Of a stretch of DNA of 64,000 nucleotides, positions 21,059 through 41,633 are shown in pieces. The notes under the pieces are model-generated. The model was not told the origin of the DNA. It ran no database searches and was given only the letters and a program-made list of their open reading frames with translations. The position numbers and the translations under genes were made by a program. The stretch's first letter is position 1; every line of letters starts with the position of its first letter. Source of the stretch: Bacteriovorax stolpii (GTDB lineage: Bacteria > Bdellovibrionota > UBA1018); assembly GCA_945860415.1 (NCBI GenBank), contig CAMAQA010000003.1:8982-72981 (forward strand). The letters run 5' to 3'.

Positions 21059-21089
21059 CAAAGAAGCATGGTCTGAGACACCTCTTCGC

Positions 21090-21965: not shown

Positions 21966-22516
21966 GCTCTTCGAGCCAGAACAAAATTCAAAGCGCAGAC
22001 GAATTGAACCAGCACTACTCCGCGGAGGACCCCTGGGAGTACGAATCGAACCCGCACGATGCAGTTCGCATCCAAAGATTTAAAAGGCTGATCGCTGGTC
22101 GGCGTTTTCGTCGTGCTCTCGACATCGGATGTGGAAACGGTTTTCTAACACGAGAGATCCCAGCTGCAGAAGTGATGGGAATCGACCTTTCCACCGCTGC
22201 GATCGAGATAGCCAGATCCAAGCTTCCAGATCCAAGATTCCAGTTCGATTCATTATCGGTCTTCGACGCCCACTCGAGGACCCTTGGTCAATTCGACCTC
22301 GTGGTCATTACCGGAGTCCTCTACCCTCAATACATCGGAGGTGCGTACCGATTGATTGACGCCAACCTTCGCTCGCTGCTTTGTCCTGGCGGCCGGCTCA
22401 TTCATTGTCATATCTTTGAGTGGCTCAGATACACTCCCACCCTGAATTTGCTATCGAGAGAGACTTACCAATACAGGGATTACACTCACGTCTTGGAAGA
22501 GCGGGTTGCCGAATGA
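21962..22516 (+). CDS. Small class I SAM-dependent methyltransferase
   Basis: ALDIGCGNGFLT motif I. 184 aa. Its stop overlaps the next start as ATGA. Confidence 0.7.
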   Translation: MSSSSQNKIQSADELNQHYSAEDPWEYESNPHDAVRIQRFKRLIAGRRFRRALDIGCGNGFLTREIPAAEVMGIDLSTAAIEIARSKLPDPRFQFDSLSVFDAHSRTLGQFDLVVITGVLYPQYIGGAYRLIDANLRSLLCPGGRLIHCHIFEWLRYTPTLNLLSRETYQYRDYTHVLEERVAE

Positions 22517-24018
22517 TCCTCTGCTACCACAAGGTATCACCCGAGCGGAAAACGCCATGGTGGGTGAGTGTCGACAAATTTTACTCAGATATGATCGCGC
22601 TTCGTAGTCGGAAGGTGGTTAGCCTGGACGATTACGATCCACTGAATCCCGATCATGTCGTCATCACTTTTGATGGCGTCTACAAGAACATTGCCCAATA
22701 CGCTGCCCCAATTCTGCAAGAGTTCAGATATCCTTTCGAGCTCTTCGTCATTGGTGACTACATAGGGCGGGACAACGAATTCGACGTTTCCGAGCCGCTG
22801 ACCCCATTCGCTTCAATCGAATATCTCAAGCGCATGGAGGCAATGGGAGGAAAGGTGCAATGGCATACTCGTACCCACGCACTCCTCACTCAGCAGGACC
22901 CGGCATTGTCAGCTGGCGAGCTTGAAATCCCTGAGCCGATCAGACGGTGCTTTCCACTGCCTCATTTCAATTGGTTCGCCTATCCACACGCCCTGTCGAG
23001 CAAGGGCTCCAGGGCACTGGTTCGCACGAAATTCAAAGGTGCGATTGCGTGTGAGAACGGAGATCCGAGCGATCAGTGGAACCTGCCTCGCAAACTGGTA
23101 TTTGAGGGCACATCCGTGCGAAACAAGAAGATCTCGATTATTATTCCGAACTTCAACTATGGCCACCTCGTCCATGAGGCAATTGATTCAGCCCTGGGAC
23201 AAACCTATCCTGCGGATGAGATTCTCGTCATTGACGACTGCAGCACGGACAATTCTCGCGAACGCATCTCCACATTTCGAAACAGGGTCCGCGTCGAATT
23301 CAATGAGCGAAATCTTGGAATCATCGATAATTTCAACAAGGCCGTGTCGCTTGCAACGGGCGACTTCATTGTATTTCTGGGCGCGGACAACAGGATGCGC
23401 GCCGACTACCTTGAAAAGACTGTGCCCATCCTTCTTGCACAAGAAGAGGTAGGGGTTGTCTATACGGACATGATGTTGTTTGGTGACAGATCTCATCTTC
23501 TCGCCGAGAAAGTCGGGGCACAGCAGGTCACGCACGAGAACTGGATTTGGCAGTTTCCAGAGTACAACGCTGAAGCGTTATCCAAGCTGGAAAATGTCAA
23601 CTTTATCCACGGTTCCTCGATCTTTCGACGAAAAGCATATGACGCGGTCGGAGGATACAGAAAGTCCGGCCGCCCGGAAGATCATGATTTTTTTCACCGG
23701 ATCCTGATGCACGGATGGAAGGCAGCCCGCAGCCCACATGCTTTGATCGAGTATCGGCAGCATTCCGAAAACCAGGCCAACACCAAGCTCTCCAATGAAA
23801 TGGAAATTGCCTTACTGAAACGCGAGCTGGCCTTCGCCTTGGAGGGCACGAAGTCGAGCAACATTGTCCAGCTGGGCACGAAAATCGAGCGATTCAGCCA
23901 AAAAATTCCGTACTTGAATCGTTCTCTCAACTTTTTGTCTGGCACGATCCTGAAGTCACTTGGAGTACTGAAGACCATCGTAAGGACTATGAAGTTGATG
24001 AGACCCCGACGATCCTGA
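22513..24018 (+). CDS. Bifunctional polysaccharide deacetylase (NodB/CE4-like) - GT2 glycosyltransferase fusion
   Basis: N-terminal LCYHKV...ITFDGVY...H.H... is deacetylase-like. Central ISIIIPNFNYGHLV..DDCSTDNS with DxD is GT2. Confidence 0.75.
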   Translation: MILCYHKVSPERKTPWWVSVDKFYSDMIALRSRKVVSLDDYDPLNPDHVVITFDGVYKNIAQYAAPILQEFRYPFELFVIGDYIGRDNEFDVSEPLTPFASIEYLKRMEAMGGKVQWHTRTHALLTQQDPALSAGELEIPEPIRRCFPLPHFNWFAYPHALSSKGSRALVRTKFKGAIACENGDPSDQWNLPRKLVFEGTSVRNKKISIIIPNFNYGHLVHEAIDSALGQTYPADEILVIDDCSTDNSRERISTFRNRVRVEFNERNLGIIDNFNKAVSLATGDFIVFLGADNRMRADYLEKTVPILLAQEEVGVVYTDMMLFGDRSHLLAEKVGAQQVTHENWIWQFPEYNAEALSKLENVNFIHGSSIFRRKAYDAVGGYRKSGRPEDHDFFHRILMHGWKAARSPHALIEYRQHSENQANTKLSNEMEIALLKRELAFALEGTKSSNIVQLGTKIERFSQKIPYLNRSLNFLSGTILKSLGVLKTIVRTMKLMRPRRS

Positions 24019-27134: not shown

Positions 27135-28193
27135 ATGGGCAACCTGCACACCATTCTCCTCACCGGCGGCGCCGGATTCATAGGCAGCAACTTCGTCGAA
27201 CTCGCGGTCAGGCGCGGACACCGGGTGATCATCTTGGACGCCCTGACCTACGCCGGGCACCGAGAGAACCTCGACACGATCCCGCAGCGAACGGCCTCGC
27301 ATCCCGGCTCCTGGGAATTGGCCATCGGTGACATTCGCGATGCTCGCCTCGTCCCCGAGCTCCTGGCAAAAAACCAGTGCACGGCGCTCCTGAACTTCGC
27401 GGCCGAAAGCCACGTCGATCGCTCGATCACCGGGCCATCGGCCTTCATCGACACCAATATCCTGGGCACCTACAACCTGCTCCAGGCAGCCCGTGGCTAC
27501 GTGGACGCTCTTCCTGCTGACTCCGCGCTCAAGAAGTCCTTCCGCTACCTCCAGGTCTCGACGGATGAGGTCTATGGGGCACTGGGCGACACCGGAAAGT
27601 TCTCCGAAACGACCCCGTACGCGCCGAACTCTCCGTATTCGGCGTCCAAGGCCGCAAGCGATCACCTCGTCCGCGCCTGGCACCACACCTACGGACTGAA
27701 CGTCGTCACCACGAACTGCTCGAACAATTATGGTCCGAAGCAGTTTCCGGAAAAGCTCATCCCGCACATGATCCAGTGCGCACTGGCTGGCAAGCCGCTG
27801 CCGGTTTATGGAAAAGGCGCGAACGTGCGCGACTGGATCTTTGTTCTCGACCACTGTGAGGGCATCCTGCTGGCGCTCGAACGCGGCAAGGCGGGCGAAA
27901 CCTACTGCTTCGGCGGAAATTCGGAACGCAAGAACCTGGATGTCGTCCATGCCCTGTGCGCCGTGCTGGACGAGGTCAAGCCGCGCACGGATGAAAAATC
28001 CTATCGCGAGCAGATCAGCTTCGTTCAGGACCGCGCCGGCCACGACTGGCGTTATGCCATCGACGACACCAAGGCCCAGCAGGAGTTGGGCTTCACGCGC
28101 TCGATGAAGAACTTCGAGCAGGGCCTGCGCTCGACGGTCGAGTGGTATCTGTCGAACGACGTTTGGGTCAGGGCGGTTCTCGCGAAGGACTGA
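27135..28193 (+). CDS. rfbB: dTDP-glucose 4,6-dehydratase
   Basis: TGGAGFIGSNFV and YSASKAASDHLVRAWHHTYGL, canonical RmlB. Confidence 0.95.
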   Translation: MGNLHTILLTGGAGFIGSNFVELAVRRGHRVIILDALTYAGHRENLDTIPQRTASHPGSWELAIGDIRDARLVPELLAKNQCTALLNFAAESHVDRSITGPSAFIDTNILGTYNLLQAARGYVDALPADSALKKSFRYLQVSTDEVYGALGDTGKFSETTPYAPNSPYSASKAASDHLVRAWHHTYGLNVVTTNCSNNYGPKQFPEKLIPHMIQCALAGKPLPVYGKGANVRDWIFVLDHCEGILLALERGKAGETYCFGGNSERKNLDVVHALCAVLDEVKPRTDEKSYREQISFVQDRAGHDWRYAIDDTKAQQELGFTRSMKNFEQGLRSTVEWYLSNDVWVRAVLAKD

Positions 28194-28222
28194 GTGGCGT
28201 GCGGCCTGCTTTACTCGGCATC

Positions 28223-28738
28223 ATGACGATGCCAACAGAGCCGTTCACTTCGATCGAAACCAAGATTCATGTCATCCGCGCTCAGCGGGTGATGCTCGAC
28301 TCCGACCTGGCCGAGCTTTACGGGATTCAGACGATGCACCTAAACCAGGCGGTGCGTCGCAACGCCGATCGCTTTCCTTCTGATTTTATGTTTACCCTGA
28401 CAATTCAGGAGCTTAGGAACTTGATATCACAGAATGTGATATCAAGTTCGGCATGGGGCGGCCGCCGTAAACCCGCTCTCGCCTTCACCGAACAGGGCGT
28501 GGCCATGCTGTCTTCGGTGCTCAATAGCCCTACCGCCATTCAGGTCAATATCGCCATCATGCGGGCCTTCGTTCAAATGCGCCGAGTCCTACTTTCGAAC
28601 GCGGAGTTCGAAACTCGACTGAACGAGCTCGAGTCCAAATACGACCGCAATTTTGGAATCGTCTTCAAGGCCATCCGCGACCTCATGGATGTCGCCTCCA
28701 CTCCTCGGAAGAGAATCCAGGGCCTCGGGTCGGAGTAG
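28223..28738 (+). CDS. ORF6N-domain protein (phage KilA/antirepressor N-terminal-like)
   Basis: VMLDSDLAELYG..T..LNQAVRRN..RFP.DFMF.LT matches the ORF6N consensus. A 31-bp palindrome lies inside the CDS. Confidence 0.65.
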   Translation: MTMPTEPFTSIETKIHVIRAQRVMLDSDLAELYGIQTMHLNQAVRRNADRFPSDFMFTLTIQELRNLISQNVISSSAWGGRRKPALAFTEQGVAMLSSVLNSPTAIQVNIAIMRAFVQMRRVLLSNAEFETRLNELESKYDRNFGIVFKAIRDLMDVASTPRKRIQGLGSE

Positions 28739-28796
28739 ACTGTCTGGCTCAACCCGGGCTGCTCGGCGCAGGCGGCCAAGAATGTTTGCTCCTCAT

Positions 28797-28825
28797 ACCT
28801 CCATTTTTATGATAAAAATGGAGGT
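28797..28825. promoter_or_regulatory. 12-bp perfect inverted repeat (ACCTCCATTTTT-ATGAT-AAAAATGGAGGT) that abuts the AAA-ATPase start codon and includes its GGAGG Shine-Dalgarno sequence
   Basis: Read directly from the sequence. It would form a hairpin in the mRNA that sequesters the RBS, or could be an operator. Confidence 0.5.
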
Positions 28826-29989
28826 ATGATCTCCAGATCCATTAAACATCCGGAACAAACGAGTTTTTTTCTATTTGGACCGCGCGGTACGGGCAAGTCC
28901 ACATGGCTGAAACAGGAGTTTCCCGCTGATGTTCTGGTCGACTGCCTCGACGACAGCGTCTTCCGCCGGCTGCTCGCCCACCCCGAGCGCCTCAGTGATT
29001 GGATTCCACCGGCTCATACCGGGTGGGTGATCATCGACGAGGTTCAACGCATCCCCGCGGTTCTCAACGAGGTCCACCGGCTGATCGAGGGTCGGGGGCT
29101 GAAGTTCATCCTGACAGGGTCGAGCGCCCGAAAGCTACGGCGAGAGACCGCCAATCTGCTCGCCGGACGGGCCATCCGAAAAGAGATGCATCCCCTGTCA
29201 GCGATCGAGCTCAAAAGCGATTTTCACCTCGATCGTGCCCTGAACCGCGGGCTGCTTCCTCAGGCTTACCTTGCCGACAGCGACGCCCTGGCACGCTCGT
29301 ATCTCGAAAGCTATCTGGCAACCTACCTGAAAGAGGAAGTGCAGGAGGAGAGACTCGTGCGCCGGCTGGACGACTTCGCGAGATTTCTCGAAGCGGCGTC
29401 CTACTCGCAAGGCGCCGTACTGAACGTTTCGAGAGTGGCCGAAGACTGCTCGATCGGAAGAAAGGCAGCCGAGGGGTACTTTGAAATCCTGATCGATCTC
29501 TTGATTGCGCATCGTCTGCCGATTTTTTCGCGACGAGCGAAAAGAAAACTCATTCGTCATGAAAAGTTCTATTTCTTCGACGCCGGAGTCTTCCGCGCAC
29601 TGCGCCCCAGGGGCCCGCTCGACAGCGAGGCAGAGATCAACGGGCTTGCGCTCGAAACCCTCGTTTTTCAAGAGCTTCGAGCGGTCAACGATGCGCTCGA
29701 ACTCGGGTACCAGCTGTATTTTTGGCGAACGCACCAGCAGCAGGAGGTCGATTTTGTTCTGTATGGACGGCAGGGGTTTCACGCCATCGAGATCAAGGCA
29801 TCGGCCAGACTTCGCGAAACCGAAGACCTCAGGGACCTGAAAGCCTTTCTACAAGATTATCCCGAGGCCTCAGCCACGCTGTTTTACCTCGGCCAGCAGA
29901 CGATGCACCTCGGCGCCATGACCGTCCGGCCCGTTCAGGACCTCTTCGACGGCACCTGGTGGTCGTCGATTGCACCGGCCGGGAATTGA
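28826..29989 (+). CDS. AAA+ ATPase, AAA_14 + DUF4143 architecture
   Basis: Walker A GPRGTGKST, Walker B IIDEVQ, and a C-terminal DUF4143-like region. Preceded by a 12-bp inverted repeat that includes the RBS. Confidence 0.8.
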   Translation: MISRSIKHPEQTSFFLFGPRGTGKSTWLKQEFPADVLVDCLDDSVFRRLLAHPERLSDWIPPAHTGWVIIDEVQRIPAVLNEVHRLIEGRGLKFILTGSSARKLRRETANLLAGRAIRKEMHPLSAIELKSDFHLDRALNRGLLPQAYLADSDALARSYLESYLATYLKEEVQEERLVRRLDDFARFLEAASYSQGAVLNVSRVAEDCSIGRKAAEGYFEILIDLLIAHRLPIFSRRAKRKLIRHEKFYFFDAGVFRALRPRGPLDSEAEINGLALETLVFQELRAVNDALELGYQLYFWRTHQQQEVDFVLYGRQGFHAIEIKASARLRETEDLRDLKAFLQDYPEASATLFYLGQQTMHLGAMTVRPVQDLFDGTWWSSIAPAGN

Positions 29990-29994
29990 GGGCG

Positions 29995-30381
29995 CTACTT
30001 TTTCGGACGCATGCGACGCTCGAGCCAGCTCGCGATGACTGCGAGATCACACTTCTCTTGAATCACCTTCTGGATGATGAATGCCTCACCGTCGGACGCA
30101 GAGACTTCGATGCGAAACCCGTTGACGCTCAAAAAAACGGCCGCCGCCGCAAAGGCCACTCTCTTATTGCCATCGATGAAAGCGTGATTCAGGGCGAAAC
30201 TCTGTAAAAGAGCCGCCGCCTGAATGGAAAGGGTCTCGTAATAGCCACTTTTTGGCCGATGAATGGCGCTCTCGACGAGACCTAAATCTCGAACCCCAGG
30301 GCTTCCGCCGAATTGCTCGATGAGCATTTGGTGAAGTTCTAAAGCTTCTTCGACCGAAAGGTAACCCGTCGTCTTGGTCAT
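29995..30381 (-). CDS. doc: Type II toxin, death-on-curing (Doc)/Fic family
   Basis: HAFIDGNKRVAFAAA, the Doc variant of the Fic motif HxFxDGNKR. 128 aa. Confidence 0.85.
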   Translation of the reverse strand: MTKTTGYLSVEEALELHQMLIEQFGGSPGVRDLGLVESAIHRPKSGYYETLSIQAAALLQSFALNHAFIDGNKRVAFAAAAVFLSVNGFRIEVSASDGEAFIIQKVIQEKCDLAVIASWLERRMRPKK

Positions 30382-30611
30382 TTCGCCAGCCGATCCAACA
30401 ACTCAGCGTGTTCCGCCAGAACCTCTTGAGCGGCCTCACGAAAGGCGGGGCGAAGTCGCGCACGAGTGAGGTACTCTTGAACGGCGTCCGTCAGCACTGA
30501 AGAGATGCTTCGGTCATTCTCTTTCACGAAGGCCTTGAGCTCGTTCAGAGTTTCTTCATCGATTTGAGAGGCGAATTTGACTGCTTTGGCCATAGTGGTG
30601 CTAGTATTCAT
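30378..30611 (-). CDS. Antitoxin, ribbon-helix-helix (CopG/Phd-like), partner of Doc
   Basis: 77 aa with a 4-nt overlap to doc. Contains an RHH-like segment (SISSVLTDAVQEYL). Confidence 0.65.
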   Translation of the reverse strand: MNTSTTMAKAVKFASQIDEETLNELKAFVKENDRSISSVLTDAVQEYLTRARLRPAFREAAQEVLAEHAELLDRLAK

Positions 30612-30624
30612 GAAATTTCATGAA
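30607..30624. promoter_or_regulatory. 18-bp perfect palindrome TTCATGAAATTTCATGAA overlapping the Phd-antitoxin start codon, within an AT-rich divergent intergenic region
   Basis: Read directly from the sequence. The 30612..30767 region is far more AT-rich than the flanks and also carries direct repeats CGTTTCACGTTTCGTTTCAC. Confidence 0.5.
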
Positions 30625-30767
30625 CCGTCAAGATGATAAACCTGCGGCACCAGCGCCATTTGTTTCGTGGGACAACGCAAATAATTAATTTTTATCCATT
30701 ATTTCAATGACTTATTTGTATTATTTCGTTTCACGTTTCGTTTCACATCCTGTGCTATCCTGCCTCT

Positions 30768-32129
30768 GTGCCCCTACCGAAGCGCCCACCCTCTGACCGC
30801 TCCGCCGCCCTCGTTGCGGCGCTACGCACCGGGCCCAAGAGTACCCGCGATCTGATCGATCAGCTTCAGATCAGCCGAGCCACCCTGTCGCGCCTGGTAG
30901 GCACCCTCTCTGACCGAGTACTTCGGATCGGCGCTACACGCTCGACCCGCTACGCCCTGATCGAGCCAATTCCCGACCTGGGGCATCCGCTTCCGTACTT
31001 CAGGGTCACAGAAGAGGGGCAGTTGCTGCCCGCCGGAAAGCTGAGCTTGCTTGGCGGAACCCCCCGGCACTCGCAGTTTCACGTCGATCCGCTCGATGAA
31101 ATCCTGCAGGGTCTGCCCCCCGAAATGGCGGACATGACTCCGCAAGGATTTCTCGGTCGCCACTTCGCTCGCGAGCATGCCGAGAGCCTGAACATTCCCT
31201 CACGTCCTCAGGACTGGTCGAATGCCCACATCCTTCGGTTCGAAGCGCTCCGAGGAGAGAATCTTCCTGGAAACCTGATTCTGGGCGAGTCCAGCGCCGA
31301 ACGATTTCTGAACAGCGCCGTCGCACCGATCGCGGGCGAGCATGACTATCCTGCGGTCGCCCTGCAGGCACTCCGGGGACAGTCGGCGGGCTCGTCGGCA
31401 GGCGGAGAGCAGCCGAAGTTTTCGGTGCTGACGGCCCGCGGTCACGCCTTGGTCAAGTTTGCCGGACGAACCGCCCCCAATCAACCGCCCACACCCGCGC
31501 AAGCTCGATGGCGCGACCTGCTTCACGCCGAATTCGTTGCACTGAAGGTGATTCGAGAAGCGGGCCTGCCGGCAGCCGAGGCGCGCCTCATCGACACTCC
31601 GGAACTGACCTTTCTAGAAGTGCTGCGCTTTGATCGGTGCGGACCGAGAGGCCGCCGCCCCGTCCTCACCCTTGCAGCGGTCGACCTTCATCTCTTTGGC
31701 CAGATGGATACCTGGAGTCGGTCGGCTGCGCGTCTCGCACACTTGAAAATCCTCAGTGAGGCCGACCGACGCGCGATTCAGCTCATCGAGGCTTTCAGCA
31801 TCCTGATCGAGGATACCGACCGGCACTTTCACAATCTGGCTTTCTTTCGAGTCGGTCTTCCGGATGCTGAATTAGGAATTCCTGCTGGCACTCCGTCGCT
31901 GCAGCTTGCTCCGATCTTTGACAAGCTACCGATGATGCACGCACCCGTTGCTGAGCGCGTTTTTACTCCTGAAGAACGACGAACCCAGCTGACGAAAAAT
32001 GTACCGCCTCCACCCGAGCTCTGGGACGCCTGGGCGGCCGCAGAAAAGCTAGCCCAGCGCTACCGTGACGAAATCGCCGAAACTCAGGCGCTATCGCCCG
32101 CATTCCGCCGGGCGCTGAGCCAGCGCTAG
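30768..32129 (+). CDS. hipA: HipA-family serine/threonine kinase toxin with a fused N-terminal HTH region (GTG start)
   Basis: GEQPKFSV (HipA GxQxKF motif) and DTDRHFHNLAF (HipA catalytic D.H.N motif). The N-terminal 60 aa are HTH-like. Confidence 0.7.
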   Translation: MPLPKRPPSDRSAALVAALRTGPKSTRDLIDQLQISRATLSRLVGTLSDRVLRIGATRSTRYALIEPIPDLGHPLPYFRVTEEGQLLPAGKLSLLGGTPRHSQFHVDPLDEILQGLPPEMADMTPQGFLGRHFAREHAESLNIPSRPQDWSNAHILRFEALRGENLPGNLILGESSAERFLNSAVAPIAGEHDYPAVALQALRGQSAGSSAGGEQPKFSVLTARGHALVKFAGRTAPNQPPTPAQARWRDLLHAEFVALKVIREAGLPAAEARLIDTPELTFLEVLRFDRCGPRGRRPVLTLAAVDLHLFGQMDTWSRSAARLAHLKILSEADRRAIQLIEAFSILIEDTDRHFHNLAFFRVGLPDAELGIPAGTPSLQLAPIFDKLPMMHAPVAERVFTPEERRTQLTKNVPPPPELWDAWAAAEKLAQRYRDEIAETQALSPAFRRALSQR

Positions 32130-32237
32130 CCAGATTTAAAGTGACAGTTTAAATTCGGCTATTGCAACTGGGATGGCATGTCGGCCGGATGATGACCTTG
32201 CCTTTTCTCTCCCCCTGCGGCTAACTCGACAACCATC

Positions 32238-33113
32238 ATGAAAGGCATTCTCCTCGCAGGCGGCAGCGGAACGCGGCTCTATCCATTGACCCTGGCAGTC
32301 AGCAAGCAGCTGCTGCCGGTGTATGACAAGCCGACCATCTACTATCCCCTCTCGACTCTGATGCTGGCGGGCATCCGCGAAATTCTGGTCATCAGCACGC
32401 CTCGAGATCTGCCGATGATTCGCGCACTCCTGGGCGACGGATCAGATTACGGAATTCACCTCGAGTACGCCGAACAGGCCAAGCCCGAAGGCATTGCGCA
32501 GGCGTTTCATCTGGGCGCAGACTTTCTGGGCAACAGCCCCGCCTGCCTGATCCTGGGCGATAACCTCTTTTACGGCCACGACATGGTTCCGCTTCTTGGG
32601 CAGGCCGCGCGGCTCCAAACGGGGGCCTGTGTTTTTGGCTACCATGTCCACGACCCCGAACGTTACGGCGTGGTCGAGTTCGACTCGCACGGCAAAGCCC
32701 TTTCACTCGAAGAAAAGCCGAAAAAACCCAAGAGCAATTGGGCCGTCACGGGCCTGTACTTTTACGACGGCTCGGTGGTCGACCGTGCGCGGGCACTGAA
32801 GCCCTCCGCGCGCGGAGAGTACGAGATTACCGACCTGAACAAATCCTACCTCGCTGATGGTTCGCTCGATGTGAAGCTTCTGGGTCGCGGCGTGGCCTGG
32901 CTGGATACCGGCACTCCCGAATCGCTCATTTCGTCGTCACAGTTCGTTCAGACGATCGAACTGCGCCAGGGGCTCAAGATTGCCTGCCTCGAAGAAATTG
33001 CCTACGGCCAGGGATTCATCTCCCGCGACAAGCTTGCTGAACGCGCCGAGTTCCTCGGCAAGAGCGCCTACGGCCAGTACCTGAAATGGCTGCTGAATCC
33101 GCGAGCCTTGTAA
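32238..33113 (+). CDS. rfbA: Glucose-1-phosphate thymidylyltransferase
   Basis: [17 protein letters not shown]...[27 protein letters not shown], canonical RmlA. Confidence 0.95.
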
Positions 33114-33134
33114 AAATCGTCATGATGACGAAAA

Positions 33135-33155
33135 TTGCAAGGGCCTTGCATTTTT
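33135..33155 (+). terminator. Rho-independent terminator after rfbA
   Basis: The GC stem TTGCAAGG / CCTTGCA is followed by TTTTT. Confidence 0.6.
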
Positions 33156-33181
33156 CGTCATCATGCTAAAAAATACAAGGC

Positions 33182-34402
33182 ATGTTCCACTTTCGTCCGC
33201 GCCACGGACTGGAACTCTTTAGAAACCTTTCGAGCTTCAGCCCGATCGTCGGCATCTTCGGCCACCGTCAGGTGGGAAAAACCACCTTTGCCGAGCGTTT
33301 GGCGTCTTCGTATTGCACGTTCGACTCGAAGTCGACGCGCGATGCGGCGACGGCTGATCCCGCCCAATTCCTCGCTGCCCTCGGACGAAAACCTGCGGTG
33401 ATTGACGAGTGCCAGATGGTTCCTGACCTGTTTCCGGAGCTCAAAGACTACGTTCGAACCCATAAAAAACCGGGACAGATCATCCTCACCGGCTCGGTCC
33501 GCTTTTCGAGCCGTCGTGCCATTCGTGAATCCCTGACCGGGCGGATCGTGACACTCGAACTACTTCCGTTCTGCCTGACCGAGATTCTCGGGCACCCACG
33601 CTCCACCCTGGCACTAAAGCTGATCGGACTGCCTCGGCTCTCGGCCGCATGGGAGAATTCGCTCGGGCGAGGCGAACTTTCGGCCCGACAGCGCGCACTT
33701 CAAGACTACCTGGTGAGTGGCGGCCTCCCTGGTCTTTTCGCCATGCGAAACCCTCGGCTAAGAACCGAACGACTACGAGACCAGGTCGAGCTGATCCTGA
33801 GCCGTGACCTTCAACTCGTGCATCCGACCAGCCTGCCGTTCACCCAAATGATGGACCTGATGCGCGCCCTCAGCCGAGGCGAAAGCCACCCCGTCCATCC
33901 GACGCTCATTCGCAAGGAAACCCGGATTTCAGAAACCACCCAGAAAAAGCTACTGGGGGCGCTGGAGTCGGTTTTTCTGATCCGGCAGATTCCAGTGGAA
34001 GGCCAGCGAAAAGGAGTCAGCGTCTTCTTTGAAGACCAGCTCGAGCATCGCCACCTTCACGGTGAGGGCGTTTCGCCCGATCATGCCTTTGAAATGGCGG
34101 TCTGGCGAAACCTTCGTGCCACCTTCAACTATGAAACCGGCCTCGACTGGAGCTGTTTTCAGTTCATCGAAAAAGCGGGCCGAAGGCGCGTGCCATTCGC
34201 GTTCAGAACTCCTGGTGGCACGATCGCCATTCTACCTACTCTGGACAAAACGCCGAGCCGGCAGACTCTTGATTCAGCGCGGGAGTTTCTCCAGCGCTAC
34301 AATCAATCCCTGGCGCTCATCGTGACCCAGGGCCAACCGTCGACCGAGGTCCTTGACCCGAGAATTTTGCAAATTCCCGCCGAAAGGCTACTTTTCGAAT
34401 GA
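33182..34402 (+). CDS. AAA+ ATPase, AAA_14 + DUF4143 architecture (second copy, divergent paralog)
   Basis: Walker A GHRQVGKTT and Walker B VIDECQ. Inserted between rfbA and rfbD. Confidence 0.8.
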   Translation: MFHFRPRHGLELFRNLSSFSPIVGIFGHRQVGKTTFAERLASSYCTFDSKSTRDAATADPAQFLAALGRKPAVIDECQMVPDLFPELKDYVRTHKKPGQIILTGSVRFSSRRAIRESLTGRIVTLELLPFCLTEILGHPRSTLALKLIGLPRLSAAWENSLGRGELSARQRALQDYLVSGGLPGLFAMRNPRLRTERLRDQVELILSRDLQLVHPTSLPFTQMMDLMRALSRGESHPVHPTLIRKETRISETTQKKLLGALESVFLIRQIPVEGQRKGVSVFFEDQLEHRHLHGEGVSPDHAFEMAVWRNLRATFNYETGLDWSCFQFIEKAGRRRVPFAFRTPGGTIAILPTLDKTPSRQTLDSAREFLQRYNQSLALIVTQGQPSTEVLDPRILQIPAERLLFE

Positions 34403-34457
34403 CGACCCGCAAACTGCCCTTGCCCGCCGGCTGCGCGGAAACTACGGTGGATTCGAA

Positions 34458-35393
34458 ATGAATTCCGCCTTTGATCGCGTTCTCGTCACGGGAGTCACCG
34501 GCCAGGTGGGCCGAGCCCTCATCGAACAGCTCGGCGTTCACCGCTGCGTGGCTGCATCACGAGCCGTGCTTCCGCTCGACTTTCCGGAAACCATCCCGCA
34601 TCGGCTGGATTACTTTCGCCCTCGCGCCATCATCAACGCCGGGGCCTACACGGCCGTGGACCAGGCAGAATCGCCCGATGAGGCCATTTTCGTGAAAGCC
34701 ATCAACGAGGAGTCGCCCGCGAAGATGGGCCAGTGGTGCGCGAGGAACAGAGTACCTCTCATTCACTTCTCGACCGATTACGTCTTCGACGGCTCCGGAG
34801 ATGCCCCCCGGACCGAAGAGTCGCCCACGGGTCCGCTGAATGCTTACGGTTTGAGCAAACGTGCGGGTGAAGAGGCCATTCTGGCAAGCGGCTGCCGCGC
34901 GCTGATCTTTCGGACCTCGTGGGTCTATGATCATCAGGGAAAAAACTTCTTCCGGACGATGTTGAAGCTCGGAGCCGAGCGCGAGCAGCTGCGAGTGGTC
35001 GGAGACCAGATCGGCGCCCCGACCTTTGCCCCCCAGCTTGCCCACGCGGCGATCCTCGCACTCGAGAATGCTCTCGAGATCGAGGAGAAAACAGGTCAGT
35101 TTCCGACGGGCGTCTACCACCTCTGCCACTCTGGAGACACCTCGTGGCATGGCTTTGCCGAGGAGATCTTCGAAGGCGCTCGCGAACGCGGAATTCCGCT
35201 CCAGGTTGAGGAAGTGAAGCAGATCGCCACCGCGGAATACCCTACGCCAGCTCGACGCCCGCTCAACTCGCGGCTCGATTGCTCGAAAGCGGACCGGGTA
35301 CTCGGAGTGCGCCTCCCGGACTGGCATCTGGGCCTGGAGGAGTGCCTGGATTTGTGGCTCGAACACCACTCTCGAGGAGACTCGACCTCATGA
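34458..35393 (+). CDS. rfbD: dTDP-4-dehydrorhamnose reductase
   Basis: VLVTGVTGQVGRAL, STDYVFDG, and YG.SK..GE, canonical RmlD. Confidence 0.9.
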   Translation: MNSAFDRVLVTGVTGQVGRALIEQLGVHRCVAASRAVLPLDFPETIPHRLDYFRPRAIINAGAYTAVDQAESPDEAIFVKAINEESPAKMGQWCARNRVPLIHFSTDYVFDGSGDAPRTEESPTGPLNAYGLSKRAGEEAILASGCRALIFRTSWVYDHQGKNFFRTMLKLGAEREQLRVVGDQIGAPTFAPQLAHAAILALENALEIEEKTGQFPTGVYHLCHSGDTSWHGFAEEIFEGARERGIPLQVEEVKQIATAEYPTPARRPLNSRLDCSKADRVLGVRLPDWHLGLEECLDLWLEHHSRGDSTS

Positions 35394-35953
35394 GCACGAC
35401 ACCTTTTTCGGTCACCTCACTCGAGCTGGAAGGCCTCAAGCTGGTACAGCTGGCAGTCCATGGCGATTCACGCGGATTTTTCGTCGAGCGCTTCCAGCTG
35501 GAGCGCTTCAGGCAGAATGGGCTTCCGACGGAGTTCGCGCAGGACAATCATTCGCGCTCCGCTCCAGGCGTGCTCCGCGGGCTTCACTACCAAATGAATC
35601 CAGCCCAGGGAAAACTCGTGGGTGTGGTGCGCGGCGCGATACTCGATGTCGTCGTCGACATCCGCAAGGCGTCGGCCACCTTTGGCCGCCATATCGCGGT
35701 CGAGCTCTCCGACCTGAACGGCCGGATGCTCTGGGTTCCGGCCGGATTTGCTCATGGCTTTTGCGTGCTCGGCAGTGAACCCGCTGATGTCGTGTACAAG
35801 GTCGACGCGCTCTACAACCCCCAGTCCGAAGCCGGCATTCATCCGCTCGACCCGGATCTGGGAATCCAGTGGCCCGTGGCTTCGGCTCAGCTTTCAAAGC
35901 GCGACTCGACACTGCCCCGCTGGAGACAGTACTTCCAAGAGCCGTCCTTCTAA
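35390..35953 (+). CDS. rfbC: dTDP-4-dehydrorhamnose 3,5-epimerase
   Basis: D.RGFF.E.F...F..Q.N.S.S..GVLRGLHYQ ... P.G.AHGF, canonical RmlC. Its ATG overlaps the rfbD stop as ATGA. Confidence 0.92.
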   Translation: MSTTPFSVTSLELEGLKLVQLAVHGDSRGFFVERFQLERFRQNGLPTEFAQDNHSRSAPGVLRGLHYQMNPAQGKLVGVVRGAILDVVVDIRKASATFGRHIAVELSDLNGRMLWVPAGFAHGFCVLGSEPADVVYKVDALYNPQSEAGIHPLDPDLGIQWPVASAQLSKRDSTLPRWRQYFQEPSF

Positions 35954-37389
35954 CCCTCGTCCCTAAAAGACAGAGTCCACACCCCGGACATCGAAAGCAC
36001 ACTCACCGTCCAGCACTGCGTGGCAAACAAGGTGACACGATTTGCACTCGTGCCGAGATGCCACAAAAGGTCATTGGGGGTGCCGAGGTACACGACAACC
36101 AGAAACACCATATAACCCATGCCAGTGAGAAGGAGGACGCCACTCATCCGGGCATCTTCACGACTAGCTTTCCGACGCCAACCGAGCATCACCGCGAAGA
36201 AAGAGAACAAGAAGAGCACACCTGCATGGCTTGCAGACAAAAATAGCGACCGAAAAATCTCCACCACCGACTGTCCGTCGGTAGCCCTCGCGAGAACCCT
36301 GCTCAGGAATGACCAGTTCACGCCACCGAGATCATTTTCAACGCCAAGCCTCGAGCGAATCTCATACCAGACGATGACGCTCAGCAGACACACCCACCCG
36401 CCTCGATTCACCAAGGATCGGATCCCGATTCCGGCCACCTGACGAACCGGCAAGATCAGGAACGAAGCGCAAATGATGCAGGCCGCCGCTACTGCGCCTT
36501 CCAGTTTGCAATGCAGTGCAAGCGCCAGGAACACCAGCGACTGAACACCATGAGACGAGAACCGAGGCCCGGCCAGGGCACACAGCGCATGCAGCAGGCC
36601 CAGTAGGCCGAAATTCGCGGTCCACAAATCCATGTACCCATTCCAGGCCTTTTGACCCGGAATCATGAAAAGAATGCAAAATATTGCCAGCGAACCGATT
36701 GACGTGCGTCGGGGCAGCGCAACCCAGCCTGCCATCTGTGCAAGAAAAAAGATCACCAGGGAGCCCTTGGCCAGGCCGTCCGACCATGAAACGAATGCAG
36801 AGCCCCATGGAGAAAAGAATAAAGCTGAGCTCAGAATCGAATTCAGCCGGGGATAATCGGGATGAGAAAACGAAAACTCGGGCAGGCTCCAGCCTGCCGC
36901 AGATCCGGTGGTTCCTGAGAAAACGATCAGCTTGGAGTGCAAGAACCAGATCGAGCGGGAGTCCCAGCCCTCCAGGGGCGAGCGGAAGATCACCAGAATC
37001 AGCACAATCGATAACGAGATAATGGCAGCCCATTCTCGTCCAGGGCGATCCGTGCCGCGCTTGAATCTCAGTAACCCAAAACCTTTCGCCCAACCGAGGA
37101 CAGCAAACAAGCTCGCCAGTGGACGATGAACTGAAACTTCCGGGGCGATGAGAGCAAGCACGAGATACGCCAAAATACCCAGGCTCAGGTCGAGCGATTG
37201 CCTGAGAGCCCAGGCTTCATCACCGTGATCGGACATTCGATTCCTAAACAGGCGCCCGAAACCCACCAGAGTGAGCACCAGCAGAACAAAGGAGCTACCG
37301 GCAACGAGCAAGAACCACTCCCCCTTCACGATCGACTGGAACACACGGAGAAACCTCTTCACCAGCCAAATAGAATCGCAACGCCGCAT
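35950..37389 (-). CDS. Polytopic membrane protein (479 aa), possible O-antigen ligase/polymerase or GT-C glycosyltransferase
   Basis: At least 10 TM segments. The start codon is uncertain. Confidence 0.45.
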   Translation of the reverse strand: MRRCDSIWLVKRFLRVFQSIVKGEWFLLVAGSSFVLLVLTLVGFGRLFRNRMSDHGDEAWALRQSLDLSLGILAYLVLALIAPEVSVHRPLASLFAVLGWAKGFGLLRFKRGTDRPGREWAAIISLSIVLILVIFRSPLEGWDSRSIWFLHSKLIVFSGTTGSAAGWSLPEFSFSHPDYPRLNSILSSALFFSPWGSAFVSWSDGLAKGSLVIFFLAQMAGWVALPRRTSIGSLAIFCILFMIPGQKAWNGYMDLWTANFGLLGLLHALCALAGPRFSSHGVQSLVFLALALHCKLEGAVAAACIICASFLILPVRQVAGIGIRSLVNRGGWVCLLSVIVWYEIRSRLGVENDLGGVNWSFLSRVLARATDGQSVVEIFRSLFLSASHAGVLFLFSFFAVMLGWRRKASREDARMSGVLLLTGMGYMVFLVVVYLGTPNDLLWHLGTSANRVTLFATQCWTVSVLSMSGVWTLSFRDEG

Positions 37390-37690: not shown

Positions 37691-38446
37691 TTGGACATGC
37701 CCAAGCTAACCCTGGTCATCCCCGTTTACAATGAGTCGCGCCAGCTCGAGGAAGTCGTCCGTCTGCTGATGAACTCTCCGTGTCCGATCGAGCGCGAATG
37801 GATCTTCGTGGATGACGAATCCAAGGACGGAAGTCGAGACATCCTGCGGAGGCTCCGCGATGAGTTCGGCTTCACCCTACTCGAGCAGACCCCCAACCAG
37901 GGCAAGGGCGCTGCCGTCATCCGCGGCATTCGCGAATCCACCGGCGATTTCGTCGTGATCCAGGACGCCGACTTCGAGTACGACCCCAACGATATTCCAA
38001 GCCTGCTCCAGCCCCTGCTCGAGGGACGCGCGGACGTGGTCTACGGAAGCCGCTTCAAATCCAGTCATCAAGTCCGGCGCACGTACCACTATTTCGTGAA
38101 CCGCTTCCTGACTATCCTGAGCAACCTGATGTCGGGCATCTACCTGACCGACATGGAGACCTGCTACAAGCTCTTCCGCGCAGAAATCCTGAAGCCGATG
38201 AAGCTCCAATCGAAGCGCTTCGGAATCGAAGTCGAGTTCACGGCGTACGTTGCGAAGACCCGAGCCCGCGTCTATGAGCTTCCGATTTCGTACTTCCCGC
38301 GTACTCGGCTTCAGGGAAAAAAGATCAACTGGAAGGACGGCGTGGCGGCGCTCGTGCACCTGGTTCGCTTCAACTGGATGACAGGAATTGACGATGCGTT
38401 TGATCTCCGGAAGCTGCCAACGAAGTACTTTCCCAGCGACCGCTAA
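37691..38446 (+). CDS. GT2 glycosyltransferase, Dpm1-like polyprenyl-phosphate sugar synthase (soluble form)
   Basis: [18 protein letters not shown], and [10 protein letters not shown] (the DAD motif). Confidence 0.8.
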
Positions 38447-40317
38447 ACCTGCTGCTCGACGTAGAGCGACACTTCGACCAAACGATCCATGAGCTCACTC
38501 GGGCTCGCGCCCGGAAAGTTCTTCTGCACCAGCTCTTTTGAAAACAGCCGCAGGATGTATCGCAGTCGGAGGGCCTTCGTTTGAGATGCGAAGATGAAAT
38601 CTCGATGACCGCTGTTGATCACGATCAGCTCACGCGCCTCATCATAGCGCGATCTCCAGAGCTGTCCGGGTGAGCGTTCGAACGTGTATCCGGGCAGTCC
38701 TCTCGACGAACCAGAACGACTGGCTTCTCCGCGGGGGGCGACCTGCTCCACCACCGTTACCATGGCCTCGGCACCGACCTGGACCTCGCCCTGGCGAATC
38801 ACCACGCTGAGACGGCACATTCCCGGTTCTCCGGGCGCGCGAAAGCGAACCACCGCCGGAGAAAGCACCTCGAACTCGCCGCCTCCTTCAACGAGGCTCC
38901 ACTCATACTCGAGCTGATCGGCATGCTTTCGTTTTCGATCATATCCCACGGCTCGAAACTCTCGGCCCTGGCCGACCCCGAGGATACTGGACCCTGGAAG
39001 AACTCGGGCCGAGTGGAGCGGACCTGGAAACTCAAAGAAGGCTCTCTGCGACTCTTCGCCCACTTCGGACCCCGCGCCCGATGTCGCCGATGGGGCATGG
39101 GCGTCGGATAGGATCGTCGTCTCCTGCGCTCCTTCCTGAGGCGACGGACCTTCTGCAGTCGACCTTCCGGGCAGCTCGCCCTTCGATGAAACGACGGCGA
39201 ACCAGTCGTAATCCTCGGCAGGAAGCATCTGCACCGCATCTCGGAAAGCCTTCTGAATTGCCTCAAGGGTGGCCTTCGAGGACTCTTCTTCTTCAGCGAT
39301 CTTCATCTGCTCCAGAGACTGGATCAAAGTCGGCTCGAGACTGGAAATCGCCGATATCGCATCCTCAAAGGCCTGGTCGTGAATCACGCCAAGACGGCTT
39401 GCGGGCGAGAGCTGTAGGTCGGGGCAATCCACCCACCCTTGGAAATAGCCCGAACTCCATGGGACTCGCTGAAAGGCCTCAAGCTGAGAAATCTGCTCGA
39501 GCACCCGCGTTCCTCGCCGATACAACGCGATACCAGCACTCTTCTGAGGATCGACCAGATAAAGCTCGACAGAAATTTTCTGGCGAGAAAGCTCGGGATT
39601 CGTGGGCAGCACCAGCGGAGCCCCCTCGAAGCGTCGCGCCTCGACGACCCGGTCCATTCGCGACAGTCGATCGAGGATCCGAATCTTCACGCCCGTCGAA
39701 AGGATGCGATTGCGAAGCTCAGCCGCAAGATACGCCTCCAGGCGCTCTCCACTCAGCTGGCGAAGTCCGGGAAGCAGCGGTCCAATCATCAGCTCGGTTC
39801 CCTGGCGACCGACCAGCTGGCGGGTGGGCTGCACCTCGAACTTGTTCTTCGATCGATGCATGGTCATCTGATAGGTCTTTCCATCAGAGCCTGCGCACTT
39901 CATCGTCAGGGTTTCGCCCACAGTCCAGAAGCTCAGCAACCCGATGCCAAACTCGCCCTGAAGCGCCGAGGTATTCTGTTCGAGCTTGATTCGTCGCTTG
40001 AGCGAGTCGCAGATATGGGTACCCACGTAGTGGAAGTCGGGCTTTCCCTCGGAGTCGAGCGGTACCCCTCTACCGTTGTCGACGATGCGCAGGTACGATT
40101 CTCCGGCCTCGCGACCCCGAATGACCTGAATCTCCGTGGCTCCGGCATCAATGCTGTTTTCAACGAACTCGGCCACCGCCTTCAGCGGATTCGACTGAGA
40201 GAGCGCGATGATCGTGATGGCATTCCACTGGTCACCGATTTTCATCGACCGGCGACGGCCATCACCTCTGGAGCGCGCTGAAAGCTTCTTGGTGGAACCC
40301 GCTCGCTGTCGCTTCAT
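38443..40317 (-). CDS. GHKL-superfamily ATPase of the MutL/MORC type (HATPase_c_3-like) with a ~400 aa uncharacterised C-terminal region
   Basis: [19 protein letters not shown]...[11 protein letters not shown] is the N-box/G1 of MutL/MORC-type Bergerat folds. [10 protein letters not shown] is a G2-like motif. No MutL DNA_mis_repair or MutL_C motifs were recognised. The start overlaps the purB stop as ATGA. An alternative start lies at 40245. Confidence 0.55.
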
Positions 40318-41633
40318 TTCCTCGCCCCCGCCCGACGAAAAATACGCCCTGCGTTTCGAGTTGCGTAGGAGACACTCAGGAATCGCCGCAGCTCTCGCGC
40401 CTTCAGGTACCTGACGATATGCGAATCTGCTTCGAGTGCCGCCAGAAAGGCATTCGAGTCCGTTCCGGCCCCCAGAGCTGCTGACTGAACCCACCGATAA
40501 GCCTCGTCTCTGGCCGCCCCCCGCTTCACCAGTTCAAGCAGGATCGTGCCGGAATACACCTTCAGTCCTGCCGACTCCAGATTCGCGCGAATACGATCAC
40601 GGTCAATTTCGAGGGATGCAACGACGCCGGCGAGTCGTGACACGGCATAATGCGCAAGCATCAGCGCATCGGCGAGGGCCACGCGCTCGACGGCGGAGTG
40701 ACTGATATCGCGCTCATGCCAGAGCGCCACGCTCTCGAGTCCTGCAACGGCGTAGCCTCGGAGCATGCGGGCACATCCGGTGATATTCTCGCTCGAGATC
40801 GGATTGCGCTTGTGAGGCATCGCACTCGAACCCTTCTGGGTCTTCGAGAAGCCTTCCTTGAGCTCTCCGACTTCGGATCGCTGGAGATGCCGAATTTCCG
40901 TACCGATTCGCTCCATTCCACCACCCAGAACGGCAAGCGCCGAATAAAGTTCAGCGTGGCGATCACGCGGAATGACCTGGGTCGACACCGGCTCGACTCC
41001 GAGCCCAAGGCGCTTCATCACGGATTTTTCGAAGGCCGGATCCAGATGGGCATAGACCCCGACCGCTCCCGAGAGCTTGCCAAAGGCCAGCCCCTCAAAG
41101 GCCCGGGCGAGGCGCTCGCGGTTGCGGCGCATTTCTTCGAGAAAGCCGAGAAACTTCAGTCCAAAGATGGTCGGCTCCGCGTGCATTCCGTGGGTGCGGC
41201 CGATGCAGGGAAGATTGGCGGTTTCACGAGCGGACTTTTCCAGGGCGACCATCAGTCGATCGAGCTCCGACAACACGAGCGCCCCAGCGTCGCGGAGCTG
41301 AAGAGCAAGCCCAGTATCGAGCACATCCGAAGAGGTCAGCCCGAAATGAACCCAACGCCCTTCCTTGCCGAGCCCGGCGACCACTGCAGTCACGAACGCG
41401 ATGACATCGTGATGGACCTTCGCCTCTTCCTCACGAACACGGGCGGGATCCACGCCTCCGGCGGACTCGATTCGTCGGAGTCCTGCAATAAGCTTCTTGC
41501 CCTCGGTCGTGGAGATCCAGCCACGAGCCGTCATCTCCTCGCACGCCGCGCGCTCGACCTTCAAGCAATAGAGCCAGCGCGAACGCTCGGTGAACAGCGC
41601 TGCCATCTCAGGTCTGCTGTAACGATCGATCAT
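40314..41633 (-). CDS. purB: Adenylosuccinate lyase
   Basis: RYSRPEM...[11 protein letters not shown], and the [11 protein letters not shown] signature of the fumarate-lyase family, PurB subtype. Confidence 0.92.

Follow-up and report, generated by a model that had tools for sequence, protein, structure and literature searches.

Background

How does a housekeeping operon that is contiguous in close relatives come to be split at two of its junctions, and what becomes of its genes? This question is raised by the dTDP-rhamnose (rml) genes rfbB, rfbA, rfbD and rfbC in a Bacteriovorax stolpii assembly (GCA_945860415.1, contig CAMAQA010000003.1, positions 8,982 to 72,981). Within this stretch of 64,000 nt, in the following called the window, five genes are located between rfbB and rfbA: one for an ORF6N-domain protein, one for an AAA_14-DUF4143 ATPase (here termed ATP1), doc, an open reading frame (ORF) of 77 aa and one for a kinase with helix-turn-helix (HTH) and HipA_C domains (hipH). 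A single gene, for a second AAA_14 ATPase (ATP2), separates rfbA from rfbD. The initial annotation of this locus, made from the sequence without database searches, had named these genes, and every one of them is present with significant profile matches. It had read them as one or two small mobile or defence islands which target the rml operon and, as a hypothesis, act as a unit in phage defence or abortive infection. From the comparisons reported here we consider it probable that the operon is instead a site of accretion and decay for autonomous, individually expressed "selfish" genes, and not the target of one mobile island.

Results and discussion

The rml operon in the window and in its relatives

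Despite the interruptions no rml ORF was destroyed, as had been stated before. All four enzymes are full length and score above the curated equivalog cut-offs of the NCBIfam hidden Markov models (HMMs): rfbB (27135-28193; dTDP-glucose 4,6-dehydratase; TIGR01181, 430 bits versus a cut-off of 365), rfbA (32238-33113; 291 aa; TIGR01207, 471 versus 361 bits), rfbD (34458-35393; 311 aa; TIGR01214, 297 versus 224 bits) and rfbC (35390-35953; TIGR01221, 204 versus 156 bits). These genes, like all others discussed here unless indicated, are on the plus strand. The start of rfbD is the ATG at 34458, which is conserved among the relatives and replaced the TTG at 34353 on grounds of homology. The 4-nt overlap of rfbD and rfbC is retained. 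An identical gene order was found in a second assembly, a Logan contig of run ERR5863100 (L001).

The search for relatives was carried out at several depths. An rfbA-centred scan of one genome per species gave 80 loci, none of which carries any of the six extra genes. The nearest of these genome loci, L002 from a Bdellovibrionales metagenome-assembled genome (MAG; RfbB 88%, RfbA 84% identical), has rfbB-A-D-C uninterrupted and with this gene order. In just one of 160 other rfbA loci did tblastn detect a remote member of the ATPase family within 10 kb, and a metagenome scan with RfbA yielded nothing closer than 77% and no occupied sites. Closer relatives came from a large protein database, with RfbA identities of 95, 94, 93, 91, 86 and 83%.

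These relatives show the two slots in several states. In the loci at 95% (L162-164; RfbB 96%, RfbA 95%, RfbD 91%) and at 93% (P0004 locus) both slots are empty, the genes are joined by 4-nt overlaps and no ATP2 follows rfbC; together with L002 they represent the uninterrupted rfbBADC. The P0010 locus (RfbA 83%) holds an intact ORF6N gene only in the rfbB-rfbA slot, its rfbA-rfbD slot is empty with the overlap kept, and the locus ends at rfbD. A 243-bp spacer consisting of two ORF6N fragments lies between rfbB and rfbA in L167-169 (RfbA 91%), and ATP2 occupies the slot between rfbA and rfbD. ATP2 is in this same slot in L165-166 (RfbA 94%), where gmd-fcl replaces rfbB and a 3' remnant of ORF6N is fused to the rfbA leader; neither group has a further copy after rfbC. 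In L170 (RfbA 85%) rfbB is not adjacent, rfbA and rfbD are contiguous, and ATP2 is found after rfbC, before a GT2 gene. The window (RfbA 100%) is the fullest of these states, with ORF6N, ATP1, antitoxin-doc and hipH in one slot and ATP2 in the other.

The length of RfbA tracks this occupancy. It is 291 aa if ATP2 follows and 300-304 aa if the slot is empty. L162, which is uninterrupted, has the long tail (NDP.HF...) in common with the outgroup L002, and every ATP2-carrying allele has another end in its place. The window has thus lost the ancestral tail, which is longer by 13-17 aa and overlaps rfbD. At the other junction, the C-terminus of RfbB is in the window 2 aa longer than in the uninterrupted relatives. 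Because a deletion could not recreate the long RfbA tail together with the 4-nt overlaps, empty slots are the ancestral condition and the extra genes were inserted. The reverse polarity, an old interrupted operon from which the contiguous relatives arose by deletion or by replacement with foreign rml genes, is very unlikely. It would agree with occupied slots in a near (94%) and in more distant relatives (83-91%) while those at 95 and 93% are empty, and deletion does occur in the rfbB-rfbA slot, as the ORF6N remnants demonstrate. However, the features that the empty alleles share with L002 are those usual in compact rml operons, the insertions are missing from over 150 rfbA loci at greater distance, and the ATP1-doc-hipH segment exists in the window only. 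At the level of sequence, the comparison confirms that the extra genes are insertions into an operon which is contiguous in close relatives.

The initial annotation had assumed two independent insertions. Independence holds, since the P0010 locus has ORF6N alone and L165-169 have ATP2 without the 4-kb block of the rfbB-rfbA slot, but the number of events was higher. In the relatives the ORF6N stop codon or remnant joins a leader of ~45 nt in front of rfbA directly or via a spacer of ~50 nt. This conserved leader (CTTGCCTTTTC..CGGCTAACTC; 32197-32237, plus strand) is the right-hand border of the window-specific ATP1-doc-hipH insertion. As ORF6N is older, the homologues of ATP1 are solitary and composition differs among the components, the 4-kb block is a mosaic of at least two events, probably more. 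The whole region was thus assembled by at least three or four events, neither by two insertions nor as one island.

The ORF6N gene

The first gene behind rfbB (28223-28738) encodes a protein of 171 aa with an ORF6N domain (PF10543, 110.7 bits versus a gathering threshold of 27.8, E = 4e-32) and matches the PADLOC model PDC-S05 (E = 1e-54). It starts 29 nt past the rfbB stop codon, too close for a separate promoter, and must therefore be carried on the rfbB transcript. Intact in the P0010 locus at 83% RfbA identity and decayed to remnants in L167 and L165, it is an old resident of this slot. With the PDC-S05 family, whose ORF6N is a KilA-N-like DNA-binding domain of the phage antirepressor type, it shares the strong Pfam and PDC-S05 matches and the form of a single small gene. 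It differs as a promoter-less passenger which persists or decays across a clade. In a heterologous screen a PDC-S05 representative gave E. coli protection from T7, T5 and T4; a possible difference from the window protein is the Virulence_RhuM domain with which this representative was described.

Inside the ORF6N coding sequence, our inverted-repeat search found a perfect 15+15 palindrome, GAACTTGATATCACA-GAA-TGTGATATCAAGTTC (28417-28449). The ORF6N remnant of L167 retains it with compensatory changes, as GAGGTCACA-AAT-TGTGACCTC (~9838-9858), and the deletion in L167 stops at its right arm.

The ATP2 cassette and its dyad

The gene in the second slot, ATP2 (33182-34402, 406 aa), is preceded by a conspicuous dyad (33105-33181, plus strand), likewise detected as an inverted repeat. 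It is 77 nt long and made up of two units of 37 nt with the pattern CCTTGYA-(A/T run)-N13-15-(A/T run)-TRCAAGG, the second being the reverse complement of the first, which together give a long hairpin ending at the ATG. The predicted RNA fold has -42 kcal/mol (z = -8). The last few codons and the stop of rfbA lie inside the first unit, the dyad holds the promoter-like TTGCAT-17-AAAAAT 7 nt before the ATG, and its apex forms a terminator-like stem followed by a T-run. This apex is the sole intergenic terminator-like site on the plus strand. The dyad is what had been taken for a terminator of rfbA; it belongs to the ATP2 cassette and travels with ATP2-type genes into unrelated contexts. A terminator scan predicted none in the 55 nt between the ATP2 stop and the rfbD start and none between hipH and rfbA, and an Rfam scan of 27.0-36.2 kb at E <= 1 returned zero matches.

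The dyad was found upstream of all six ATP2-type genes that could be read, in four different contexts: in the window, L165 (2813-2900), L167 (10879-10966), L170 (9806-9893), L171 (7919-8006) and L172 (7919-8006). In L171 the ATP2 homologue (67% identical) adjoins an AbiE-like pair, and in L172 (54% identical) its neighbours are IS91 and rve transposases. All but one of the six copies form the long hairpin (z from -4.8 to -11.6), and in the alignment of the six sequences 12 of 29 pairs show compensatory changes. A covariance model built for the dyad found it only in front of ATP2-type genes in 2.3 Mb searched. One weak match of this model (L119:35-123, 29.8 bits, E = 6e-4), on a metagenome contig without a detectable ATPase homologue, is probably due to chance. 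Two further matches, obtained when viral contigs were scanned for the dyad pattern, were discarded as chance since neither is beside an ATPase gene.

Past the ATP2 stop codon no conservation was found among the ATP2-type loci compared, hence the transferable unit is the dyad plus the ORF, ~1.3 kb. The idea of an integron cassette was rejected, as the dyad occurs only upstream of the ORF and no integrase is present. The window ATP2 is 83% identical to the copy in L170, 77% to that in L165 and 75% to that in L167. The flanking and housekeeping genes rank the opposite way (L170 versus L165: PrmA 67 versus 88%, RNase E 86 versus 97%, RfbD 73 versus 88%), and the proportion of synonymous differences agrees with this incongruence, from which we conclude that the cassette was exchanged horizontally.

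Dyads at the start codons of the PDC-S01 family

The gene for ATP1 (28826-29989) also begins within a dyad. A perfect inverted repeat of 18+18 nt (28793-28829, plus strand) covers both a Shine-Dalgarno-like GGAGG and the ATG; its RNA fold has -24.8 kcal/mol (z = -6.2). The same layout is repeated, with compensatory changes in the arms, before two tandem genes in L174 (~7960-8003 and ~9265-9308) and before the homologue in L176 (~4960-5003). The dyads of family genes in L182-L186 are just upstream of the annotated starts. Among ATP1-type genes the arms are ACCTCCA/TGGAGGT or ATCCTGA/TCAGGAT. The closest homologue of ATP1 is a case of such a tandem, in which it and a second AAA_14-DUF4143 gene each have a dyad of their own (L174:8001-10469, L175:645-3119). 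The differing arms (ACCTCCA versus ATCCTGA) of the tandem genes suggest paralogue-specific operators.

To this set we added six distant plasmid-borne family members which are 25-39% identical. Four of them, from Acidithiobacillus, Thiothrix, Granulicella and Runella, reach the threshold of the dyad test, and those from Acidithiobacillus and Thiothrix have the form CCTTGCAAAT-N17-ATTgCAAGG-ATG. The Emticicia member possesses a similar but weaker repeat (score 7, just under the threshold), and no inverted repeat abuts the start codon of the Simkania member. When an inverted repeat with a score of at least 8 ending at -4 to +3 of the start was demanded, it was present in 13 of 16 family genes, compared to 1.5% of 600 control ORF starts. 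A second test asked for two hexamers of the sigma-70 type that agree at 7 or more of 12 positions, with a -10 element ending 4-9 nt before the ATG. Again 13 of the 16 genes have it (-10 element 6-9 nt before the ATG; for instance TTGACA-16-TAAAAT-6-ATG in the Desulfonatronum gene), versus 10% of 1,500 controls. This sample of 16 is small and includes the six ATP2-type copies, which are mutually related. Full-text searches and term look-ups in the literature on DUF4143, COG1373 and PDC-S01 did not reveal a start-abutting dyad with a promoter-like motif.

What may this element do? We infer that the dyad is an operator overlapping the promoter of an mRNA with no leader or hardly any. The winged HTH of the encoded protein itself would probably bind there, and an autoregulatory operator is suggested by the fact that the dyad arms co-vary between paralogues. 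In transcripts that read through from a neighbouring gene the dyad would fold and hide the start codon. Context-independent expression of this kind fits the scattered, solitary distribution of PDC-S01 genes. Tentatively, one could go further and regard PDC-S01 genes as self-contained single-gene cassettes that are defined by the dyad as promoter, autoregulatory operator, read-through insulator and maybe recombination joint, with the ATP2-type as a derived, non-cleaving variant. A recombination joint would explain why ATP2 is found at different junctions of the same operon without a recombinase.

The two ATPases

ATP1 matches AAA_14 (74 bits, gathering 27), DUF4143 (106.5 versus 28.1 bits) and PDC-S01 (3e-57). 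Its Walker A (GPRGTGKS) and Walker B (IIDE) motifs are present, and the PD-(D/E)XK residues EVD...E-x-K are intact, with D309, E322 and K324 as invariant columns of the family alignment. ATP2 matches AAA_14 with 80 bits (gathering 27) and PDC-S01 with E = 2e-52, as a divergent subfamily of the latter. Its Walker A (GHRQVGKT) and Walker B (IDE) motifs are intact and followed by a winged HTH, but it remains below the threshold for DUF4143 (16.7 versus 28.1 bits, E = 0.0065). In the profile-profile alignment the ATP2-type proteins have P, L and T in the C-terminal nuclease-like fold where the ATP1-type has D309, E322 and K324. The ATP2-type is thus a nuclease-dead subfamily in which the Walker motifs are kept. 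With a dN/dS of ~0.07 ATP2 is under purifying selection.

The description of the two as paralogous DUF4143 ATPases is in part correct. They are homologous over their full length (hhalign probability 99.4% over 335 columns), yet remotely so, with 28% identity over 96 aa in BLASTP and 22% over the 335 profile columns, and the DUF4143 match of ATP2 is sub-threshold. A recent duplication as the source of the two genes was rejected on these identities. A search of PDB sequences with the ATP2 family profile matched no chain. The resemblance to STAND/NB-ARC NTPases and to the archaeal Walker ATPases PABY2304 and SSO1545 is one of fold only, and ATP2 is without sensor repeats.

The AAA_14-DUF4143 family is multi-copy in Bdellovibrionota genomes. 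A solitary homologue of ATP1 (77% identical) is located behind an opp operon, in tandem with another family member, and one from Desulfonatronum (58% identical) between an MFS transporter gene and nrdD; no ORF6N, doc or hipA is near these closest homologues.

DUF4143/COG1373 has been placed in the PD-(D/E)XK superfamily (PMC3424549). PDCs, the phage-defence candidates of PADLOC, are predicted by "guilt-by-embedding" (bioRxiv 10.1101/2024.01.29.577857). PMC12988326 ranks PDC-S01 fourth in frequency among the defence systems of prokaryotes, describes it as the fusion of an ATPase with a domain of the PD-(D/E)XK superfamily, and states that validation of the core-defensome PDCs, PDC-S01 included, is mostly still pending. 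The window genes are like PDC-S01 (COG1373) in the HMM matches of both ATPases and in the full Pfam architecture and the D...ExK residues of ATP1. They also fit the solitary single genes among housekeeping genes which are reported for PDCs generally. ATP2 departs from the family by its sub-gathering DUF4143 score and the lost catalytic residues, and the siting inside an rml operon is unusual.

Mobility signatures and composition

Glycan clusters such as those for O-antigen are hotspots of horizontal gene transfer, and defence islands and other variable hotspots are known between conserved core genes. The presence/absence polymorphism of defence-like and toxin-antitoxin genes between conserved flanks is the same here. 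In contrast, the slots are internal junctions of a coupled four-gene housekeeping operon and not spaces between operons, they take up one to few genes each, and there is no integrase or tRNA anchor.

This bears directly on the initial proposal of one or two mobile islands targeting the rml operon. Its supporting observations are that all six genes match toxin-antitoxin or PADLOC candidate-defence families, that two lineages received ATP2-type cassettes at different junctions of this cluster, and that a further window-only gene, for a 683-aa GHKL ATPase, is nearby. However, a Pfam scan of ORFs from 19.5 to 40.5 kb detected no integrase or transposase domain; the four genes that follow, up to 46.3 kb, are housekeeping as judged by homology and synteny alone. 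No tRNA gene is in the window, and no target-site duplications, terminal inverted repeats or direct repeats beyond chance flank the insertions (27.9-34.7 kb). Short GAAT and GAG matches at the ATP2 junctions were considered as duplications and dismissed as too short and too diverged. Thus neither a recombinase nor an att site, duplication, attC or tRNA, the hallmarks of integrative islands, transposons and integrons, was found. Furthermore, the components occur separately in relatives and elsewhere, they differ in composition, and, apart from the single remote ATPase mentioned above, their families are not associated with rfbA in the 160 other loci. As to an integrated defence function, PDC-S01 is an unvalidated candidate, and the single representative that was tested gave no protection in E. 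coli B in the heterologous screen. The single-island version is largely refuted by these findings, and the island explanation as a whole is highly improbable. Neither is the idea of defence new: the families are already listed in PADLOC as the candidates PDC-S01, PDC-S05 and PDC-M59B, which is a candidate annotation only. A defence or addiction function of the inserted genes is conceivable.

Lower GC had been given as a further sign of inserted material. The dip at 30400-30800 is real (48.5%) and mostly due to a 156-nt intergenic region with 37.8%. As evidence it is weak, since the GC content at third codon positions is 0.58-0.69 in the inserted genes and overlaps the 0.67-0.72 of nearby housekeeping genes. 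Composition differs among ATP1, doc with its antitoxin, and hipH. We rejected it as a main argument for foreign origin, for the sole conspicuous parts are doc, its antitoxin and the intergenic regions.

Doc pair and HipH-like kinase

Convergent to ATP1, with the stop codons 5 nt apart, doc (29995-30381, minus strand) encodes a canonical Doc/Fic toxin (Fic, 57.5 versus 24 bits; TIGR01550, 51.5 versus 38.65 bits; PDC-M59B) with the motif HAFIDGNKR. The 77-aa ORF upstream of it (30378-30611, minus strand), a putative antitoxin, overlaps doc by 4 nt. It had no Pfam match at E = 1e-3 and no match to Phd/YefM even at E <= 5; the best weak ones are DUF6364 and the ribbon-helix-helix model RHH_1 (E ~0.02-0.03; RHH_1 0.029). 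Its position, size and overlap still fit an antitoxin. The earlier label Phd-Doc is therefore well founded for Doc and unconfirmed for Phd. The pair shares with Phd-Doc the motif HxFx(D/N)GNKR and a small upstream ORF with a 4-nt overlap, and differs from it in an antitoxin not recognisable as Phd/YefM.

The gene in front of rfbA (30768-32129) codes for a HipH/YjjJ-like Ser/Thr kinase toxin with a HipA_C domain (68 bits). It aligns over its full length (residues 14-451) to NF007297 (YjjJ) with 364 bits; since this is under the equivalog cut-off of 401, "HipH-like" is the safer name. An N-terminal winged-helix match (residues 9-52, 26 bits) is also below its cut-off. The gene is monocistronic, with no hipB and no adjacent co-directional small ORF. 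HipH (YjjJ) was described by Gerdes and co-workers as an N-terminal HTH joined to a HipA-like kinase, monocistronic without hipB (PMC8262856). The window kinase shares this architecture and layout and differs by its sub-cut-off score.

Antitoxin-doc and hipH diverge from an AT-rich control region (30612-30767; 156 nt), which contains a promoter-like site for the doc operon on the minus strand (30631-30603). Directly upstream of the hipH-like gene there is a tandem direct repeat of GTTTCGTTTCAC (two copies, 30700-30767), which could be an operator for the N-terminal HTH of the kinase.

Neighbouring junctions

Variation is not restricted to the two rml slots. Between rfbC and the GT2 gene the window has a 479-aa ORF without Pfam match (35950-37389, minus strand). 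L162 (12392-14057) has at this junction an ORF 42% identical to it plus one of 114 aa, and L170 the ATP2 cassette. In L165 (5664-5715) and the P0004 locus it comprises only ~50 nt. The GHKL gene of the window (38443-40494, minus strand; 683 aa, HATPase_c_3) is located between the GT2 gene and one for an adenylosuccinate lyase-like (purB-like ASL) protein. These two are 0-25 nt apart or overlapping in L162, L165 and L170, which makes the 683-aa ORF another window-only insertion; its sole PADLOC match is marginal (TmtA, E = 6e-4). Upstream of the operon, the genes at 19491-24018 (ABC-2 permease and ATPase, PhyH-like dioxygenase, methyltransferase, deacetylase-GT2 fusion) have 51-53% GC, the window 59%. 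They seem to be a module of the polysaccharide cluster that was acquired on its own.

Accretion, decay and their consequences for the operon

A history of accretion would begin with an ancestral rfbB-A-D-C joined by 4-nt start/stop overlaps, which imply translational coupling. In an old event the ORF6N DNA-binding gene would have entered between rfbB and rfbA. In a separate one the 1.3-kb ATP2 cassette would have entered between rfbA and rfbD, replacing the last rfbA codons. ATP1, antitoxin-doc and the hipH-like kinase would then have been added, in the lineage of the window only, between the ORF6N stop and the rfbA leader, probably in more than one event because their composition is heterogeneous.

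Such newcomers could live anywhere by bringing their own control signals. For the ATPase genes these would be the start-abutting dyad and the sigma-70-like leaderless promoter, with the start buried by folding in read-through transcripts; for the doc pair and hipH, their common divergent promoter region. On the side of the host, the coupling of rfbB to rfbA and of rfbA to rfbD would be lost and only that of rfbD to rfbC kept, while the ORFs stay intact. Expression of rfbA would now probably occur with or after hipH, and that of rfbD and rfbC with or after ATP2. A plausible layout is that of three separate units, as had been supposed before, namely rfbB-ORF6N(-ATP1), hipH-rfbA and ATP2-rfbD-rfbC.

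Several points weigh against this history. All relatives are metagenome contigs or MAGs, and the comparison is without an independent organism phylogeny. The states of ORF6N and ATP2 are patchy with respect to rfb identity (empty at 95 and 93%, occupied at 94 and 91%). For this reason a history of gains only does not fit, and one has to assume either recombination or gains and losses that recurred. Synonymous sites are near saturation, which renders the incongruence argument for ATP2 only semi-quantitative. The promoter and the leaderless mRNA are read from the position of the motifs alone. Finally, four lineages have kept ORF6N in one and the same slot, and four have kept ATP2 within the rml cluster, which could instead mean that the host has co-opted them.

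According to this last explanation ORF6N and/or the nuclease-dead ATP2 now regulate the rml or glycan cluster and are retained for that. The lineages with ORF6N in its slot span 83-100% RfbA identity and the gene must be co-transcribed with rfbB. Strong purifying selection acts on ATP2, which keeps the Walker motifs and the winged HTH in spite of the lost nuclease residues and is co-directional with rfbDC with no predicted terminator in between. Against co-option, ORF6N has decayed to fragments in two lineages in which the rml genes are still intact, and close relatives live without either gene. Moreover, ATP2-type genes with the same dyad exist elsewhere beside AbiE-like genes or transposases, the family has several copies in Bdellovibrionota genomes, and ATP2 switches its slot within the cluster. 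We therefore regard co-option as unlikely, though less so than an ancestral interruption or an island, and prefer accretion and decay of autonomous genes.

Conclusion

Taken together, the locus is a hotspot of accretion of an ordinary kind, in which one cis-element may be new. With regard to the rml operon the result is modest: a stepwise natural example of how a coupled housekeeping operon tolerates repeated insertions of autonomous toxin and defence-candidate genes, which at its junctions persist, decay, as the ORF6N remnants do, or change the slot. Beyond the ordinary are the series of occupancy states, the relocation and exchange of a 1.3-kb cassette without a recombinase, the nuclease-dead subfamily and the start-abutting dyad. 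For PDC-S01, an abundant yet uncharacterised family of candidate defence genes, a conserved dyad with a promoter-like element at the start codon is now described. Not every PDC-S01 match is to be taken as a potential nuclease or a nuclease-based defence gene. As a candidate operator and promoter, the dyad provides experimenters with a concrete handle on this family.

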